DNA from: a virus
Length of the DNA: 64,000 bases
Strand: one strand, 5' to 3'
Virus genome (UHGV): UHGV-1430915
Shown: one piece after another, positions 17,532 to 27,044 of the stretch
How positions within the stretch are numbered: the stretch's first letter is position 1
Layout: each line of letters opens with the position of its first letter
Position numbers and translations under genes: made by a program
The notes under the pieces: model-generated
Database searches by the model: none
Told to the model about the DNA's origin: nothing
Seen by the model: the letters and a program-made list of their open reading frames with translations, nothing else

Positions 17532-17608
17532 TGGTCTCCACGGAGTGATTCGAACACTCGACCTCCTGATCCCAAATCAGGCGCTCTACCAAGCTGAGCT
17601 ACGCGGAG
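17532..17608 (-). tRNA. tRNA-Pro (anticodon TGG)
   Basis: Cloverleaf by hand: acceptor stem paired, D-arm GCTC/GAGC, anticodon loop TTTGGGA, T-loop GTTCGAATC, encoded CCA. Confidence 0.8.
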
Positions 17609-17619
17609 TATTTATTATT

Positions 17620-17694
17620 TGGTGGCCCTGGGTGGAATTGAACCACCGTCTGGCGATTATGAGTCGCTTGCTTGAACCTTCCAGCTACAGGGCC
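17620..17694 (-). tRNA. tRNA-Met (anticodon CAT)
   Basis: Acceptor GGCCCTG/CAGGGCC, anticodon loop CTCATAA, T-loop GGTTCAATTCC, CCA encoded. Confidence 0.8.
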
Positions 17695-17695
17695 A

Positions 17696-17771
17696 TGGTG
17701 CTGATGGCAGGACTTGAACCTGCAACCTATTGATTACAAATCAATTGCACTGCCAATTGTGCTACATCAGC
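17696..17771 (-). tRNA. tRNA-Thr (anticodon TGT)
   Basis: Acceptor GCTGATG/CATCAGC, anticodon loop TTTGTAA, T-loop GGTTCAAGTCC, CCA encoded. Confidence 0.8.
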
Positions 17772-17775
17772 AAAA

Positions 17776-17878
17776 GGTGCTAGGTGATGGAATCGAACCA
17801 CCTATGTATTCAACGACTACCTCGTCTATTTTCAGGATTAAAAATCCTCGCCCTTGCCAAAGGGCTTACCTAGCGCAA
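17776..17878 (-). ncRNA. tRNA-like element (perfect acceptor and T-arm; Lys-TTT-like anticodon loop; about 30 extra nt before T-arm; no encoded CCA)
   Basis: Acceptor GCTAGGT pairs with ACCTAGC, T-loop GGTTCGATTCC present, but region between anticodon and T arms far exceeds any normal variable arm. Confidence 0.4.
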
Positions 17879-17880
17879 TA

Positions 17881-17972
17881 TGTTGACCATGTGGCTAGTC
17901 GGCGATGACGACTGTAACATTTGATAATCCGGTTCTGCTTCCGGCTTTCGCTTAATTACAAGGTCAACAATG
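17881..17972 (-). ncRNA. candidate small structured RNA within tRNA cluster
   Basis: 8-bp closing stem TGTTGACC/GGTCAACA enclosing two hairpins (AGTCG..CGACT and CCGG..CCGG); lacks T-loop signature. Confidence 0.3.
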
Positions 17973-18063
17973 TGGCGGAGAGTAATGGAATCGAACCATC
18001 ATCGAGTCATCCTCAACGGGACGGTTTTCAAGACCGCTTGAGCACCATTGCTCCCTACCCTCC
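17973..18063 (-). tRNA. tRNA-Ser (anticodon TGA)
   Basis: Anticodon loop CTTGAAA, long variable arm, T-loop GGTTCGATTCC, acceptor GGAGGGT/ACTCTCC, CCA encoded. Confidence 0.8.
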
Positions 18064-18177
18064 TTTATAAATTACACTGATAATGACACTGATTTTCGAG
18101 CAGTTAGTGACTAGTATAAACGACGATAAATATCAATGTCATTATCTGTATGATTTATGCATTTAAAAATATAAATT

Positions 18178-18264
18178 TGGTGGGGAGTGGTGGAGTCGAA
18201 CCACCCGAGTCGCAATGACAATAGATTTACAGTCTACACCGCTACCTCTACGGGATAACTCCCC
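18178..18264 (-). tRNA. tRNA-Tyr (anticodon GTA)
   Basis: Anticodon loop CTGTAAA, long variable arm, acceptor GGGGAGT/ACTCCCC, CCA encoded. Confidence 0.8.
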
Positions 18265-18268
18265 AATT

Positions 18269-18343
18269 TGGCACCCCGTACTGGACTCGAACCAGTGTCA
18301 ACGGCTTAGAAGGCCGCTGCTTTATCCACTAAGCTAACAGGGC
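18269..18343 (-). tRNA. tRNA-Arg (anticodon TCT)
   Basis: Anticodon loop CTTCTAA, D-arm GCTT/AAGC, acceptor with G-U pairs, CCA encoded. Confidence 0.75.
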
Positions 18344-21278: not shown

Positions 21279-21833
21279 TTACTCCCCGCTGTCAATAGCA
21301 AGACTCATTGCAATACGGTATGCCTCTTCTAATGGTAAGAGTCTCCCCCACACATCCCAACCGACATCAAACTGCCTGCCAAACAACTGCTGTGTGGTTC
21401 CGTGAGCATGACCGAACAGTTGGACTGATCCGTGAGGCTTTCTGTTCCACTTTGCAAACTGGTAATGGCTCATACAGATCAAATTCTTGTTGTGGCGAAG
21501 CTCGTAATAATCTACAACCTCATGACCGAACTCTTTCATAATTCTGACAGTCGTCCTTGTGTCATGGTTACCACGAACAAGAATAATATGTCCGTTCAAC
21601 ATATTTAGAACATCTGGAAGCAATTTGTTGATATTCTTATCATTAGTGCACGCAATATCCCCCAAGTGAAACACAGTGTCTGCAGGTGACACAACAGAGT
21701 TCCACTTGGTGATGATTCCCGCATTCATACTGTCAAGATTGTGATCATACTGAGATCTGTGTTTTTGACATGAGTCGAACTCCATTACCCGCTGGTGGAG
21801 AAAGTGTGTGTCGCTTGTTACAAAGTATTTCAT
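21279..21833 (-). CDS. calcineurin-like metallophosphoesterase (putative RNA 3-prime phosphatase / phosphoesterase)
   Basis: Motifs SDTHF, GDIA, GNHD, GHAH typical of binuclear metallophosphatases; start set at MKYFVTSDTHF. Confidence 0.65.
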   Translation of the reverse strand: MKYFVTSDTHFLHQRVMEFDSCQKHRSQYDHNLDSMNAGIITKWNSVVSPADTVFHLGDIACTNDKNINKLLPDVLNMLNGHIILVRGNHDTRTTVRIMKEFGHEVVDYYELRHNKNLICMSHYQFAKWNRKPHGSVQLFGHAHGTTQQLFGRQFDVGWDVWGRLLPLEEAYRIAMSLAIDSGE

Positions 21834-21840
21834 ACATTCC

Positions 21841-22251
21841 TCATTTAAGTTTAATGCAGTTTTTAAGCTGGCGTTCCATACGATCCACAACCCTGTCTGG
21901 AACATCATGAATGCTTTTATTACCATGGCGGTTTTCAACCACGATCACGGTATAACTATATCCATGACTGATCGCCATGTCAATATATTCTTGCACATAT
22001 TTTTCTTTTGTAAACGTATTACTTACCACGATACGGTCGTAGCCCATACGCATCATATCTTCTACGTTATCTTTGCACCATTTTGCTGCAAGTGTTACTT
22101 TACTTGCATCCCAATTGTAATTGCCGTCATCGTCGTACCAGAACATATCGTTCTCAAAATGTGGATACAGACCTTCTAAAGATAGCGCATTTGCCAGTGT
22201 TGATTTGCCAGACCCTGGTAGACCACGCACGATATATAGCATTTTAGACAT
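21841..22251 (-). CDS. polynucleotide 5-prime kinase (Pnk-like P-loop kinase)
   Basis: Walker A GLPGSGKST; C-terminal region resembles T4 Pnkp kinase domain (HG..SIHDVP..V..RM); start at MSKML with RBS. Confidence 0.65.
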   Translation of the reverse strand: MSKMLYIVRGLPGSGKSTLANALSLEGLYPHFENDMFWYDDDGNYNWDASKVTLAAKWCKDNVEDMMRMGYDRIVVSNTFTKEKYVQEYIDMAISHGYSYTVIVVENRHGNKSIHDVPDRVVDRMERQLKNCIKLK

Positions 22252-22279
22252 AGTAACTCTCCGTTTTAATTTTAATGAT

Positions 22280-22308
22280 AGTATACCTAACTGTTTTGTT
22301 AATTTCAA
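22280..22308 (-). promoter_or_regulatory. sigma70-like promoter (minus strand) TTGAAA-N17-TATACT
   Basis: Upstream of kinase-phosphatase operon, back to back with plus-strand TTGACA at 22312-22317. Confidence 0.45.
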
Positions 22309-22351
22309 GTGTTGACACCAAGTTATTTGTGTGGCAGGATAAAGGGACAAA

Positions 22352-23287
22352 ATGACAAATGAGGAATGTATAATGAAGTATTTTAATGCAGACGACCTAG
22401 TTGACAAAGGTCTTGTAACCAGCAGATATTACCCGGATCTTGGGTTAAAGATCTATAAATATGCCAGAAAAGTATTCTACAACAATTTATGGCATTTGTC
22501 TCCTCGTTTGCTGGAGTGCCGAGGCATTGTTGTCGGTAATGAAGGAAATGTTGTGGCATGGCCCTTCACAAAAGTGTTTAACTTGGGAGAAAATTCCACC
22601 AACCTGCCTGACAATAAACTTGTGACGGCGGTAGAGAAAAAGAACGGATTCCTTGGTGTGGTATCATCTCATAAAGGTGAACTATTGTTCTCAACAACCG
22701 GGTCTCTTGATTCTCCATATTGTAACCTTGCAAAGGAAACAATCCAGGAGCAATGTGGTAATTTAGATCTTATCAAGAGGGTTATGGGCCATGAAAACAT
22801 GACATTCATGTTTGAAATTTGTCACCCTTCAGATCCGCATATTGTTCAGGAAGATCATGGCGCATATTTGATAGGTTGCAGATATAATGATTCTGGAATA
22901 ATGCTACCAGAAGCAGCTTTAGATGGGATTGCCAAATACCTTGGTGCAAAACGTCCTCACACTGTGCGTGAAATTCCGTTCAGCTATGCAAAAGAATTAG
23001 CTGCAGAAACAAGAGGTGAAGGGTATATGATTCGTAAGCCTTACTACCCTTATGATCTGCAGCTGAAGATCAAGTCTCCATACTATTTGGCACGGAAGGC
23101 CGTAATGAGGGGTAAAGCTTGGAAGATTTGGGATGATGATATCTTTAAACGTGTTGACGAAGAGTTTTATGGCATGGTAAACTTCATTCGTAGCAATTAC
23201 ACAGAAGATGTGTGGAACTGCCTCCTGGAGCAAGAACGTCGTGAGATACTTGACTGCTATTTCCACAACGAGGACTATATGCAATGA
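22352..23287 (+). CDS. RNA ligase, Rnl1 (T4 RnlA) family
   Basis: Blocks LECRGI, KVFNLGEN, KKNGFLG, STTGSL align with T4 Rnl1 LECRGI, KFFNLNEN, KEDGSL, KSKGSI; motif I has Asn in place of Asp. Confidence 0.65.
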   Translation: MTNEECIMKYFNADDLVDKGLVTSRYYPDLGLKIYKYARKVFYNNLWHLSPRLLECRGIVVGNEGNVVAWPFTKVFNLGENSTNLPDNKLVTAVEKKNGFLGVVSSHKGELLFSTTGSLDSPYCNLAKETIQEQCGNLDLIKRVMGHENMTFMFEICHPSDPHIVQEDHGAYLIGCRYNDSGIMLPEAALDGIAKYLGAKRPHTVREIPFSYAKELAAETRGEGYMIRKPYYPYDLQLKIKSPYYLARKAVMRGKAWKIWDDDIFKRVDEEFYGMVNFIRSNYTEDVWNCLLEQERREILDCYFHNEDYMQ

Positions 23288-23634
23288 AGAAGTTGATTGT
23301 GTGGCTGGATGACTTGAGAGATCCGTCAAATTATGGGCTCCCAGATGCTCTTTGGCTAAAGAATTCCTCTGAGTTTATGGATTTTATTAACGATAAGGGA
23401 AAGCTCTACAGGCGCGTTTCTGAGTGGCACATGGACAACGATCTTGGAGAGGTATTTGAAGGGTACGATTGCCTATCTATGTTGGAGGAAAAATTTGTAT
23501 TTGGTAAGCCTCCTGTAGTTGACAACGTGAAGATTTTCGTGCATACTTCTAACCCATCAGCGGCTCGTAAATTCATGATTGCTGCTGACTCGTTTAAAAA
23601 GTTTGGAATAGAGATTAAACAAAACATCTACTGA
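23284..23634 (+). CDS. hypothetical protein, translationally coupled to RNA ligase (possible receiver-like fold)
   Basis: ATGA overlap with RNA ligase stop; N-terminal LIVWLDD acidic pair; no confident family assignment. Confidence 0.5.
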   Translation: MKKLIVWLDDLRDPSNYGLPDALWLKNSSEFMDFINDKGKLYRRVSEWHMDNDLGEVFEGYDCLSMLEEKFVFGKPPVVDNVKIFVHTSNPSAARKFMIAADSFKKFGIEIKQNIY

Positions 23635-23642
23635 GGACACTT

Positions 23643-24404
23643 ATGCGACGACTGATCATTATCTCCGGTGCTGGTTTGAGCGCTGAATCTGGTATCCCCA
23701 CTTTCCGATCTGGTGGCACTGCAATGTGGGAGAATTTCAGCATCGATGAGGTGTGTAACATCCACACCTTTGCCAAGAACTACTATAAGGTGCATGACTT
23801 TTACAATGCACGGCGTGTAGCTCTGGGCAGTGTTGATCCTAACCTTGCACATCTCCGGATCGCTGAGTGGTATTCACGCTGGTCTGGTCGTGTGATCAAC
23901 CTGACAACCAATGTAGATGATTTGCTGGAGCGTGCTGGTGTAAAACATGAAGATATTTTACATGTCCACGGATATTTGCCAGAAATAGTCTACGAGGATG
24001 ATGAAGGGAGTAACGTCATTAAAGACATTGGATACTCTGAGGTAGACGCAAGCAAGTATACTTGGGTTAAGCCTAATGTAGTGTTTTTCGGAGAAGTAGC
24101 TCCAAAGTATACAGACATGTATGACCTGTTGACTTCTCTGACGAGCAATGATATGGTTATCCTTGTAGGGTGCTCCAACACAGTTATCAATTTTAACTGG
24201 GAGCTATTCCCTGCCTGTAATAAGGGAACCAAACTGCTGATCGTTAACAAATACGACTCACAGCATTTAGGGGAGAATGGCATTTCACGTAGTGACATTT
24301 ACCAGTATGAGGATCGCGGCATCCCAGTTTGGTTTAACGGGGCGGTTGACGCTTTCTCTGATAAAACATTTATTGACATCGTAGAAAACTTTATGGAACT
24401 GTAA
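23643..24404 (+). CDS. Sir2-family NAD-dependent protein (sirtuin-like)
   Basis: Canonical sirtuin motifs GAGLSAESGIPTFRS, TTNVDDLLE, catalytic-His block LHVHG, VKPNVVFFGE, ILVGCSNTV; no zinc-ribbon Cys pairs. Confidence 0.8.
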   Translation: MRRLIIISGAGLSAESGIPTFRSGGTAMWENFSIDEVCNIHTFAKNYYKVHDFYNARRVALGSVDPNLAHLRIAEWYSRWSGRVINLTTNVDDLLERAGVKHEDILHVHGYLPEIVYEDDEGSNVIKDIGYSEVDASKYTWVKPNVVFFGEVAPKYTDMYDLLTSLTSNDMVILVGCSNTVINFNWELFPACNKGTKLLIVNKYDSQHLGENGISRSDIYQYEDRGIPVWFNGAVDAFSDKTFIDIVENFMEL

Positions 24405-24418
24405 GCGGAGGCCTTTTA

Positions 24419-25132
24419 ATGCTGAATACTAAACTGATCGACAACCTGGAAAAACTGTCTCAGCCTGAAAACTACCTTTGGTCTGCCAACTGGGTGGAAA
24501 ATTGGAACCGTGTAGCAGCTAAAGTGAAAAAATCATACACACCATTCGAACTTCAGCTGAGTTTCATTGAGGAAGAGTTCAATGAAGTTTTGGAAGAGTT
24601 GGAGAAAGGTGATGGTGGGGATCATCTCCTAAAAGAGGCCTGCGATCTTCACGTTGTCACAAGTTATGCCGCTTATCTTGTTAACGATAACCATGAAAAG
24701 TGGTCAAACCTGTTTGATAATCCGCGAGGTCTTAAGTTTAAGATCGGTGAATTTTATGATACACTGATCGCTGCGAAAAATACCTCTAAGCAAAGAGCGT
24801 CCGCTTACCGCTTAGCAGAGCTGTCAACGGCTTTACTGTTCCAGCTTCGCGGTGATGTGTGCGGGATGATGCGGAAGGTTCTAAAATCTAATGACAGCAA
24901 GTTTGCACGTGTCAACCATCTGCGGCATTCACACGGTGCCAGTGCAGATATGCCTGCTGAACAACTCATCGAGTTGGAGATTAAAGATCTTGAGCGACGC
25001 TTTGATGGTCGCTATGAAGGTTTTGTTGCTAAAGAAGAATTCTACAACGGAAATAAAGTTATCATATTCCTCGACAGTAAAGGTAAGATTATGAAGCCTT
25101 CAAGCTTCAAGGATGTAACAGAATATATTTAA
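24419..25132 (+). CDS. possible MazG-like nucleotide pyrophosphohydrolase
   Basis: Acidic helix IEEEFNEVLEELEKGD and EACDLHVV reminiscent of MazG/HisE all-alpha NTP pyrophosphatases; weak. Confidence 0.4.
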   Translation: MLNTKLIDNLEKLSQPENYLWSANWVENWNRVAAKVKKSYTPFELQLSFIEEEFNEVLEELEKGDGGDHLLKEACDLHVVTSYAAYLVNDNHEKWSNLFDNPRGLKFKIGEFYDTLIAAKNTSKQRASAYRLAELSTALLFQLRGDVCGMMRKVLKSNDSKFARVNHLRHSHGASADMPAEQLIELEIKDLERRFDGRYEGFVAKEEFYNGNKVIIFLDSKGKIMKPSSFKDVTEYI

Positions 25133-25196
25133 TAACATAGCCGGGGCGATCCCGGCTTTACTTGTTTCGGAAAGTATGCAAGTGAGGTAGAAAGTT

Positions 25197-25505: not shown

Positions 25506-25761
25506 TCTTGCTAGACCTGTAGAAGCACACCAGTTTGACGGAAGCTCTTCATCAGTATCTGATCTGCAACGGTGGATTGATACAGGTGTGTTTACACCGT
25601 CACCTGTTCGGACCAGAGATATTCTTCGCATGTGTGAGCTTGTCGAGCCGTTTGGTAACCTGGTCTTGTACCAAGGGGATTGGTTAGTTGACTTTATGGG
25701 AGACTGGTTGGTAATGAGCAAAGAAGAGATGTTTAAAATTTTTAAGGAAGAGGCTGAGTAA
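25492..25761 (+). CDS. hypothetical protein
   Basis: 89-aa ORF, overlaps neighbours by a few nt. Confidence 0.4.
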   Translation: MPLFNLARPVEAHQFDGSSSSVSDLQRWIDTGVFTPSPVRTRDILRMCELVEPFGNLVLYQGDWLVDFMGDWLVMSKEEMFKIFKEEAE

Positions 25762-27044
25762 TGCATCAGATCAAAACAACACTGTACGCACTGAACAAAG
25801 ATGGCAGCTACCAACAGTGGAAAGTATTCACGGATGGTGATAAGGTTATCGTAGAGTTTGGCAAGCTTGATGGTAAACTGCAATACAAAGAGACGATCTG
25901 CACACCTAAGAACGTGGGTCGTGCCAATGAAACTACAGCTGAGCAACAGGCTGAGCTGGAAGCGATCAGTAAGTGGGAAAAACAAGTCCGTCTGGGGTAT
26001 GTTGAAAATATGGAAGATTGCGAGCAGGGTGTTGACCTTTTACCCATGTTGGTGCATGACTACCTGAAGCGTGGAAAGGCACTTAAATTACCTTGCTGGA
26101 TTTTGCGTAAGTTAGATGGCCTTCGTCTACTGGTTGTTTTCCAAAACGGTGAGCCTAAATTTATTTCCCGTGGTAATAAGTCCTACCCTATTCAAGGAAA
26201 GCTTCTGGAGCAACTTCGTTCTTTCCACTTCACCACCGGGATTAAACAGCTCGACGGAGAGATCTATATTCATGGTCTGCCTCTGCAGAAAATAGTGTCT
26301 CTTGCTAAACGTTGGCGCACACAGGAAGAGATTCAGGCCGAGATCGATAAAGACTACGAGGCAGATAAAAAACGCCGTCATGCCGCAATTAAGGCAGGCT
26401 TATCAACATACAAAAACTTCAATAAGGTAGATATTCCTGTTGATGTTGAGCCTGTTCGTGATGATTTGCGTTACGGAGGGTACTGTAGCTATGACTTAGA
26501 GTATCATATTTTCGACATCCCTAGTGACAAGGTATGGTGGGATCCAGAAACAGAATCTGGACGATGCAAGGATCTTATGGATGCAGAAGATACCATTACC
26601 ACCCTGATGCTTGACCATATCAAGGTTGTTGACGCAGAGCTTGCGTACACAGTTGATCATTGCGAAGAATCTGTTGGTGTATTCATGTCCGAAGGATATG
26701 AAGGTACTATCATGCGTAACTTCTGCGGTAAATATGAATATGGTCAGCGAACATCTGAAGCATTGAAATGGAAAAAGTTCAACGATGCTGAGGTGAAAGT
26801 TATTGACGTTGAGAAAGATAAGAATGATGAAGGTGTTCTTATCTGCGTTGACAAGGAAGGTATCGTTGTTAAAATGAAGATGAAAGGCACGCACGAGGAG
26901 CGTAGCTATGACAGGATGCAGGAAATGATCGGCAAGTTTGTCACCTTCAAATATCAAGCAAGGACAGAAGACAACAACTACCAATTCCCTGTCGGCATCT
27001 GCGTCCGAAATGTTAACCCTGACACTTGGGAGGTTCTGGAATGA
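25761..27044 (+). CDS. ATP-dependent DNA ligase
   Basis: Nucleotidyltransferase motif I KLDGLR, motif III-like EGYEGTIMRN, motif V LKWKKF; 427 aa. Confidence 0.7.
   Translation: MHQIKTTLYALNKDGSYQQWKVFTDGDKVIVEFGKLDGKLQYKETICTPKNVGRANETTAEQQAELEAISKWEKQVRLGYVENMEDCEQGVDLLPMLVHDYLKRGKALKLPCWILRKLDGLRLLVVFQNGEPKFISRGNKSYPIQGKLLEQLRSFHFTTGIKQLDGEIYIHGLPLQKIVSLAKRWRTQEEIQAEIDKDYEADKKRRHAAIKAGLSTYKNFNKVDIPVDVEPVRDDLRYGGYCSYDLEYHIFDIPSDKVWWDPETESGRCKDLMDAEDTITTLMLDHIKVVDAELAYTVDHCEESVGVFMSEGYEGTIMRNFCGKYEYGQRTSEALKWKKFNDAEVKVIDVEKDKNDEGVLICVDKEGIVVKMKMKGTHEERSYDRMQEMIGKFVTFKYQARTEDNNYQFPVGICVRNVNPDTWEVLE

Follow-up and report, generated by a model that had tools for sequence, protein, structure and literature searches.

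A predicted split RNA healing-and-sealing cassette in the virus genome UHGV-1430915 and in related phages

Positions 21279-23634 (2,356 bases) of the 64,000-nucleotide window of virus genome UHGV-1430915, the whole stretch of DNA that was analysed, encode four proteins: a metallophosphoesterase (MPE), a kinase, a ligase and a 116-residue protein with a cREC_REC domain. Together they probably form a split T4-like heal-and-seal pathway, which would repair the cuts that metal-independent ribonucleases make in RNA, most likely in tRNA. A preliminary description, made from the sequence alone, had proposed such a split repair set, and profile searches, a predicted fold and a strongly conserved gene linkage uphold it. 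The argument is built on family and fold assignments, catalytic residues, linkage and gene fusions. All four proteins score above the Pfam gathering cut-offs of their families (27.5 bits against 21.5 for Metallophos, 39.3 against 27 for AAA_33, 55.3 against 28.3 for RNA_lig_T4_1 and 53.2 against 27 for cREC_REC), and the motifs SDTHF, GD, GNHD, GHAHG, the P-loop and KKNG are all present.

To set the gene limits, ribosome-binding sites were combined with alignments of homologues and with the curated entry for phage MaxBurger. The MPE (184 amino acids, beginning MKYFVTSDTHF) is encoded on the minus strand at 21833..21279. A longer open reading frame, initiated at a TTG, reaches up to 21938 and overlaps the kinase gene, and its TTG is not the start annotated in the MaxBurger record. 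The kinase gene, also on the minus strand (22251..21841), encodes a stand-alone P-loop polynucleotide 5'-kinase-like protein of 136 amino acids (MSKMLYIVRGLPGSGKST). Its TGA stop codon overlaps the ribosome-binding site of the MPE gene, GAGGAA, and the ATG of the MPE lies 7 nt downstream. On the plus strand, the gene for the Rnl1-like ATP-dependent RNA ligase ends at 23287 and begins at 22352 or, likelier, at 22373, giving a protein of 311 or 304 amino acids. The ATG at 22373 is probably the start, since GAGGAA is found at 22361-22366, the homologues start there, and residues 1-7 of the AlphaFold model have a confidence score (pLDDT) below 50. The gene for the cREC_REC domain protein (23284..23634, plus strand, 116 amino acids) follows directly. 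Its translational coupling to the ligase gene, suggested earlier, is borne out by the ATGA at 23284-23287, in which the stop of one gene and the start of the other are shared.

When the ligase was used as a single sequence to search the PDB, no meaningful match was obtained; a profile of 28 homologues (41-49% identity) was required, and this profile matches T4 Rnl1 alone (E 7e-13). T4 Rnl1 is also the closest fold to the AlphaFold model of the ligase, which is confident overall (pLDDT 91.5). The catalytic motifs of the nucleotidyltransferase fold align with those of T4 Rnl1: KKNG with KEDG in motif I, FEI with FEF in motif III, EGY in motif IV and KIK in motif V. In all 28 homologues, K96-K-N-G, F154-E155-I, E223-G224 and K239-I-K241 are invariant. 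R57 and K74-x-F76 are likewise invariant and align with the "LECRG" and "EKFFN" segments in the N-terminal subdomain of T4 Rnl1, in which Arg54 and Lys75-Phe contact ATP and have described roles (PMC6379707). Pfam, the homologue profile, the predicted fold and the catalytic residues thus agree on the family named in the preliminary description, provided that it is understood as Rnl1-like. The ligase scores 39 bits against a cut-off of 242.25 for the NCBIfam equivalog TIGR02308 ("T4 RnlA family"), and about 65 helical residues follow its motif V, compared with about 130 in T4 Rnl1, where the profile alignment stops at residue 249. Judged by these alignments, the protein is an Rnl1-like member of the superfamily and not a T4 RnlA equivalog or Rnl1 orthologue.

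The Asn in motif I, where Asp was expected, had been taken as a reason to doubt that the ligase is active. This doubt does not hold, as Asn98 is invariant in 28 of 28 homologues and active ligases of the Trl1 type carry the same KxNG motif. The fungal Trl1 ligases are both active and essential, and their Asn contacts the catalytic metal via water (PMC6379707). In the alignment, the motif I Asn is therefore a trait of the family.

The kinase also gave nothing meaningful as a single sequence against the PDB, and a profile of 17 homologues was needed. The best match of the profile is T4 polynucleotide kinase (1LY1 and 1LTQ, E 6e-9), which aligns from end to end, followed by PSTK (1.3e-8), Pnkp1 (4XRP, 3e-8) and the kinase of Clostridium thermocellum Pnkp (4GP7, 1e-6). 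G10, G13, G15, K16 and T18 of the Walker A motif are invariant in the 17 homologues, as is D35, which aligns with the catalytic Asp35 in the "NRDDY" segment of the T4 enzyme. The protein also matches phrog_505, "polynucleotide kinase", with an E-value of 3e-10. The AAA_33 score, the T4 enzyme as top profile match and the aligned Asp35 all support the earlier assignment as a T4-Pnkp-like P-loop kinase. With 136 amino acids, the protein consists of the kinase domain only, and the fused HAD 3'-phosphatase domain with its DxDxT motif is not found in it. It is not a Pnkp orthologue, and the name "3'-phosphatase, 5'-polynucleotide kinase", used in some public records, is wrong for the phosphatase half.

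In the MPE, the metal-binding motifs D8, H10, G58-D59, G88-N89-H90, H123, G141-H142 and H144 are invariant in 17 homologues. These motifs and the Metallophos score above cut-off confirm that the protein belongs to the binuclear metallophosphoesterases. It matches phrog_547, "phosphoesterase" (E 5e-51), and its profile has one strong match in the PDB, aq_1665 of Aquifex (1XM7, E 7.6e-23), while the GpdQ-like, YfcE-like and other phosphohydrolases match with E-values of about 1e-3 or weaker. The MPE is predicted to be a calcineurin-like binuclear enzyme that heals 3' ends carrying a 3'-phosphate or a 2',3'-cyclic phosphate. The separate phosphatase had been likened to the arrangement in bacterial Pnkp, a comparison that needs correcting: the phosphatase of Pnkp is fused to its kinase, and the MPE shares only the superfamily with it. 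Neither the phosphatase domain of a bacterial Pnkp nor a lambda-type phosphatase appears by name among the PDB matches of the MPE profile with E up to 1.

The three genes are linked far beyond this genome. A search with the ligase confirmed 117 loci on viral contigs, and the best 80, from viral metagenomes and with ligases 36-89% identical to that of UHGV-1430915, were examined. A homologue of the kinase is found in the flank of 71 of the 80 loci, within 600 bp in 60 of them, and in 11 the kinase and the ligase share one reading frame as a fusion. For the MPE, a flanking homologue is present in 62 loci, and in 42 of these it is no more than 600 bp away. The genes of the cassette are co-directional in nearly all loci, most often in the order MPE, ligase, kinase (21 loci) or kinase, ligase, MPE (15 loci). 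The profile of PHROG 8238, "RNA ligase", spans 737 positions and matches both the kinase and the ligase. The chance that a random gene lies within 600 bp of the ligase in a genome of about 100 kb is estimated here at about 2%. Since the linkage is above this level and is accompanied by fusions, there is strong evidence that the MPE, the kinase and the ligase function together, as a conserved cassette that is widespread in phages. The divergent layout of UHGV-1430915 is seen in one close relative alone among the 80 loci (L002), as well as in phage MaxBurger, and is peculiar to this genus.

The 116-residue protein, previously described as having an unknown fold, belongs to a named family of receiver fold, Pfam cREC_REC (PF20274, E 4.8e-14), even though a single-sequence search of the PDB gave nothing meaningful. 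An exhaustive profile search collected 1,263 cluster representatives, most of which stand alone and are 100-125 residues long. In an alignment of 36 diverse members, the acidic pocket formed by D9, D10 and D51 is invariant together with His87; Arg12, Asp53, Glu68 and Asn90 are nearly invariant, and the Lys of classical receivers is not conserved. Membership of the family is indicated by the Pfam threshold, the receiver fold and the conserved acidic pocket without a histidine-kinase partner. This pattern is more in keeping with a small metal-dependent enzyme than with a phosphorelay switch. The cREC domain was named by Iyer et al. in 2021, who noted its operons with RNA ligases and predicted from gene context that the domain is a hydrolase of 2',3'-cyclic phosphates or cyclic ADP-ribose (PMC7824862). 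The 116-residue protein is a predicted cyclic-phosphate phosphoesterase.

With a broader cREC profile, a cREC gene, divergent in the case of L032, L068 and L064, is found in the flank of 13 of the 80 ligase loci, a linkage that agrees with the published prediction for the domain (PMC7824862). It adjoins the cassette in at least four arrangements: between the ligase and kinase genes; upstream of MPE, ligase and kinase, either contiguous (L032) or 0.5-1.3 kb away (L004, L005 and L014); in the order cREC, kinase, ligase, MPE (L068); and in that of locus L064. In neighbouring phage lineages with genomes of 145-148 kb, the order is MPE, ligase, cREC, kinase, Sir2, so that cREC lies inside the cassette. 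The cREC gene has joined the cassette independently several times. The reverse relation was examined with 79 distant stand-alone viral cREC loci, which were fetched with a profile of a 13-sequence subset. Homologues of the ligase, the MPE and the kinase occur in 2, 2 and 1 of them, respectively, and no consistent RNA-repair or NAD-enzyme neighbour and no dominant family was found around the 79 genes. Their 117 immediate neighbours include, by Pfam, one RtcB, two CCA-adding enzymes and two Metallophos proteins; 56 Pfam families are matched, and neither Sir2 nor Macro is among the 25 commonest. A general link of cREC to RNA repair or NAD enzymes is not upheld by these loci. Because the distant cREC genes have no consistent RNA-repair neighbours, cREC is an accessory of the cassette in some lineages and not a universal partner. 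Its assignment to the cassette is based on the loci collected around the ligase and on published work.

In the proposed pathway, the kinase would move a phosphate from a nucleoside triphosphate to the 5'-OH end of the break, and the MPE would restore the other end to 3'-OH/2'-OH. In the lineage of UHGV-1430915, cREC would probably act first and open the cyclic phosphate, leaving a monoester for the MPE to remove. The ligase, adenylylated on Lys96, would activate the 5'-phosphate and seal the break. The likely role of the pathway would be to reverse the cleavage of tRNA by host anticodon nucleases during infection, alongside the tRNA genes that the phage itself carries 2.9 kb away. The counter-defence role, the substrates and the order of the steps are inferred by analogy with T4 and PrrC.

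Several points weigh against this reading. The C-terminal domain of T4 Rnl1 (about residues 255-374, some 120 residues) gives the enzyme its specificity for tRNA and, in the scheme of Shuman, is the defining feature of the Rnl1 clade. Since most of this domain appears to be missing from the phage ligase, its substrate could be another RNA. The sole clear solved relative of the MPE, aq_1665, is uncharacterised, and the MPE also weakly resembles PdeM, the ligase-associated phosphoesterase of DNA repair (E 2.4e-4). The varied surroundings of the distant cREC genes belong here as well. A literature search found no experimental paper on the cassette in rV5-like phages or on cREC, and we know of no specific host nuclease that is countered by these phages.

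The tRNA genes of the phage bear on the question of whose RNA is mended. They form a cluster of seven on the minus strand (17532..18343), about 2.9 kb from the cassette, which was located with ARAGORN and Rfam and comprises Pro-UGG, a CAU tRNA (Met or Ile2), Thr-UGU, Lys-UUU, Ser-UGA, Tyr-GUA and Arg-UCU. The six tRNAs listed in the preliminary description are encoded there, and the seventh, tRNA-Lys(UUU), had been missed. This tRNA, a classic target of anticodon nucleases, is 97 nt long (17778-17874, minus strand) and has a normal cloverleaf; in the Rfam alignment, it carries an insertion of 27 nt in the variable arm, with a possible stem of 5 bp. Such a class-II-like arm is unusual for tRNA-Lys. 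The gene was left unnamed by ARAGORN, is also present in L002 and is annotated as tRNA-Lys in phage MaxBurger. For the CAU tRNA (17620-17694, minus strand), ARAGORN gives Met, and the annotation of phage MaxBurger has tRNA-Ile with the codon ATA, which implies lysidine modification. A match to the Rfam YrlA-like family at 17555-17667 scores 25 bits against 69 and overlaps two of the tRNA genes, and it was set aside as reflecting tRNA-likeness. A tmRNA gene lies no more than 8 kb from the cassette in two related loci (L045, 14168-14570; L062, 16341-16663), and several loci carry suppressor-type tRNAs with the anticodon CUA or UUA.

The presence of tRNA genes near the cassette is suggestive: of 45 loci scanned, 20 have them no further than 8 kb from the ligase. 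The same proximity, together with the unusual arm of tRNA-Lys, could mean that the enzymes serve the phage's own RNA, in the maturation or quality control of its tRNAs, the long-armed tRNA-Lys included, or in the repair of its mRNA. Such a role is unlikely. In the other 25 scanned loci, the cassette has no tRNA gene within 8 kb. Because the insertion in tRNA-Lys folds as a variable arm and is not an intron of the anticodon loop, no splicing is needed. The one studied precedent, T4 Pnkp and Rnl1, is a counter-defence system (PMC6379707).

A second alternative concerns the nature of the ends. T4 polynucleotide kinase acts on DNA as well as RNA, the MPE has its weak match to PdeM, and a DNA ligase homologue is found in the flank of 31 of the 80 loci. 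UHGV-1430915 itself encodes an ATP-dependent DNA ligase at 25761-27044, 2.5 kb downstream of the RNA ligase gene, with the Pfam DNA_ligase_A_M domain and an OB domain. The cassette might then heal and seal nicks or ends in DNA that carry a 3'-phosphate and a 5'-OH, in the way of mammalian PNKP or of bacterial Lig-PdeM, and act together with this DNA ligase. This is slightly less probable still than a role in the phage's own RNA. The score of the PdeM match is 20.6 bits against a cut-off of 150, the DNA ligase of the phage is a separate protein of its own, the fold of the RNA ligase favours RNA, and the kinase has, after the T4 enzyme, PSTK, Pnkp1 and C. thermocellum Pnkp as its next-best relatives, all of them enzymes with tRNA or RNA substrates. 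The repair of cleaved RNA, most likely tRNA, therefore remains the preferred reading of the cassette.

Downstream of cREC, the plus-strand unit continues with two further genes. The first, 8 nt after cREC (23643..24404), encodes a Sir2-family protein of 253 amino acids (Pfam SIR2, E 1.1e-26; phrog_2162, E 9e-109). Its translation keeps the NAD-binding and catalytic-His motifs and has no cysteines at the usual place of the zinc module, and it scores below the cut-off of every NCBIfam deacylase model. A Sir2 gene follows the kinase or cREC gene in 11 of the 80 loci, all of one phage lineage. Since linkage within one lineage is inseparable from shared ancestry, the membership of Sir2 in the repair module is unproven. 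The second gene, 14 nt after Sir2 (24419..25132), encodes a MazG-like protein of 237 amino acids, with phrog_671, "nucleotide pyrophosphohydrolase", as its sole match (E 1e-21); sequence searches of Pfam, NCBIfam and the PDB gave no match for it. In relatives, this gene lies kilobases further from Sir2, past the DNA ligase gene, and it is probably outside the repair module. Directly after it, a G+C-rich hairpin at 25139..25157 (AGCCGGGGCGATCCCGGCT, then a T-rich tail) has a terminator score on both strands and ends the unit of ligase, cREC, Sir2 and MazG-like genes.

The neighbourhood of Sir2 raises the question of a eukaryote-style, NAD-linked route, in which cREC would open the cyclic phosphate to a 3'-OH and a 2'-phosphate, the KxNG ligase would, in the manner of Trl1, seal ends with a 2'-phosphate, and the zinc-less Sir2 protein would use NAD+ to remove this 2'-phosphate from the junction, as a functional counterpart of Tpt1. 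This route is based on the KxNG motif and on an adjacency within one lineage only, and it is quite improbable as a whole; that cREC is a genuine new receiver-fold phosphodiesterase is likelier than the full route. Least probable of all is that the ligase serves mainly in attaching tail fibres, as T4 gp63 does in its second activity, and that the kinase and MPE are unrelated genes of nucleotide metabolism: many records do carry the name "RNA ligase and tail fiber protein attachment catalyst", inherited from T4 gp63, but all the catalytic residues of an adenylyltransferase are invariant, the gene lies among early nucleic-acid metabolism genes and not among tail genes, and the linkage and fusions with the kinase and MPE are kept across very diverse phages.

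The kinase and ligase genes are separated by a divergent intergenic region (22252..22372), which holds promoter-like hexamers and both ribosome-binding sites; GGAGAG precedes the ATG of the kinase and GAGGAA that of the ligase. Because the two genes diverge, promoters would be expected in or near the gap of about 100 bp. The back-to-back promoters of the preliminary description are only partly supported. On the kinase side, two sigma-70-like sites on the minus strand each match the consensus at 10 of 12 positions (TTGAAA-17-TATACT at 22308..22280 and TTAACA-16-TATCAT at 22302..22275). On the ligase side, a perfect TTGACA (22312-22317) is paired with a poor -10 hexamer that matches at 3 of 6. 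In this A+T-rich region, 22 promoter-like sites were observed, about twice the 10.9 +/- 3.9 of shuffled sequences. A perfect inverted repeat of 15 nt (AAATGAGGAATGTAT) has one arm at 21832-21846 on the minus strand and the other at 22357-22371 on the plus strand, so that the arms flank the kinase gene. They cover the ribosome-binding sites of the MPE and ligase genes, and both proteins start with MKYF. The repeat was considered as a possible footprint of an inversion; phage MaxBurger has one copy only, so that it is not a conserved element.

The region is well represented in public records. It is 99.6% identical to Escherichia phage NHEP1 and, over its full length, shares an identity of at least 90% with 118 phage records, almost all from rV5-like coliphages (genus Vequintavirus). 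In these records, the ligase is called "RNA ligase" and often "RNA ligase 1 and tail attachment protein", the MPE "phosphoesterase" or "phosphohydrolase", the kinase "polynucleotide kinase" or "ATPase", and the 116-residue protein "hypothetical protein". The functions of the three core genes are thus already annotated publicly, and finding them here from the raw sequence is a rediscovery of that annotation. Among 120 matching records, of which 119 are at least 90% identical, 18 are titled "Campylobacter phage" (16 of them with the host C. jejuni), which suggests mislabelled hosts or coliphages contaminating the preparations.

Compared with known systems, the cassette most resembles T4 Pnkp and Rnl1, with which it shares the three predicted activities and which supply the nearest solved relatives of its kinase and ligase. 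In T4, this pathway repairs tRNA and counters the anticodon nuclease PrrC. Each component of the phage cassette, however, has its own features. In T4 Pnkp, the kinase is fused to a HAD phosphatase, while the phage has a lone kinase of 136 amino acids and a separate metallophosphoesterase of another fold. T4 Rnl1 has KxDG in motif I and about 130 residues after motif V, whereas the phage ligase has KxNG and about 65. The cREC gene is an addition to the T4 set. The bacterial Pnkp/Hen1 and Pnkp1-Rnl-Hen1 systems (C. thermocellum, Capnocytophaga gingivalis) also rely on a metallophosphoesterase of the calcineurin superfamily, which heals 3' ends, and on a kinase of the Pnk type. These systems carry the kinase, phosphatase and ligase-like domains in one polypeptide, which works with the methyltransferase Hen1, while those of the phage are separate proteins, and no Hen1 was recognised within the examined stretch of about 19.6-27 kb.

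The Trl1 enzymes of fungi and plants (Rnl6 clade) have the KxNG form of motif I in common with the phage ligase (PMC6379707), and in their pathway a dedicated phosphodiesterase opens the cyclic phosphate, as is predicted for cREC. Trl1 differs in being one trifunctional protein, with a phosphodiesterase of the 2H fold and its own C-terminal domain, and in requiring a 2'-phosphate and an NAD-dependent Tpt1 step, whereas the phage has separate proteins and a partner of the phosphomonoesterase type. The cRec systems described by Iyer et al. in 2021 are those of jumbo phages. The 116-residue protein is encoded in an operon with an RNA ligase and beside a Sir2 NAD-utilising enzyme, the sort of setting that underlay the prediction for the domain. 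The present phage is a non-jumbo coliphage of 137 kb. The link of cRec to RNA ligase is rare among the distant stand-alone viral cREC genes sampled here, and the activity of the domain is a prediction.

The cassette does not constitute a new category, as the gene functions are annotated, and publications already cover both the overall "syntax" of such systems and the prediction for cREC. The present analysis contributes the recognition of the motif I Asn as a family trait, the identification of the fourth gene, with a structural model, and the distinction of the phosphatase from the Pnkp type. It further adds the wide distribution of the trio, with its fusions, in phages and the repeated, independent association of cREC with it. 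Defences by which hosts cleave tRNA are now recognised as common, and to our knowledge, the only phage repair answer to them that has been studied in depth is T4 Pnkp/Rnl1. The same repair job appears to be widely encoded in a split, modular form, and the number of sequenced Vequintavirus genomes with the cassette is well above one hundred. A different phosphatase fold and, in some lineages, a receiver-fold enzyme distinguish this cassette from the T4 answer. Its small proteins and E. coli host would make it a convenient system for studying the predicted activity of cREC, the substrates of short Rnl1-type ligases and the defences that rV5-like phages escape.

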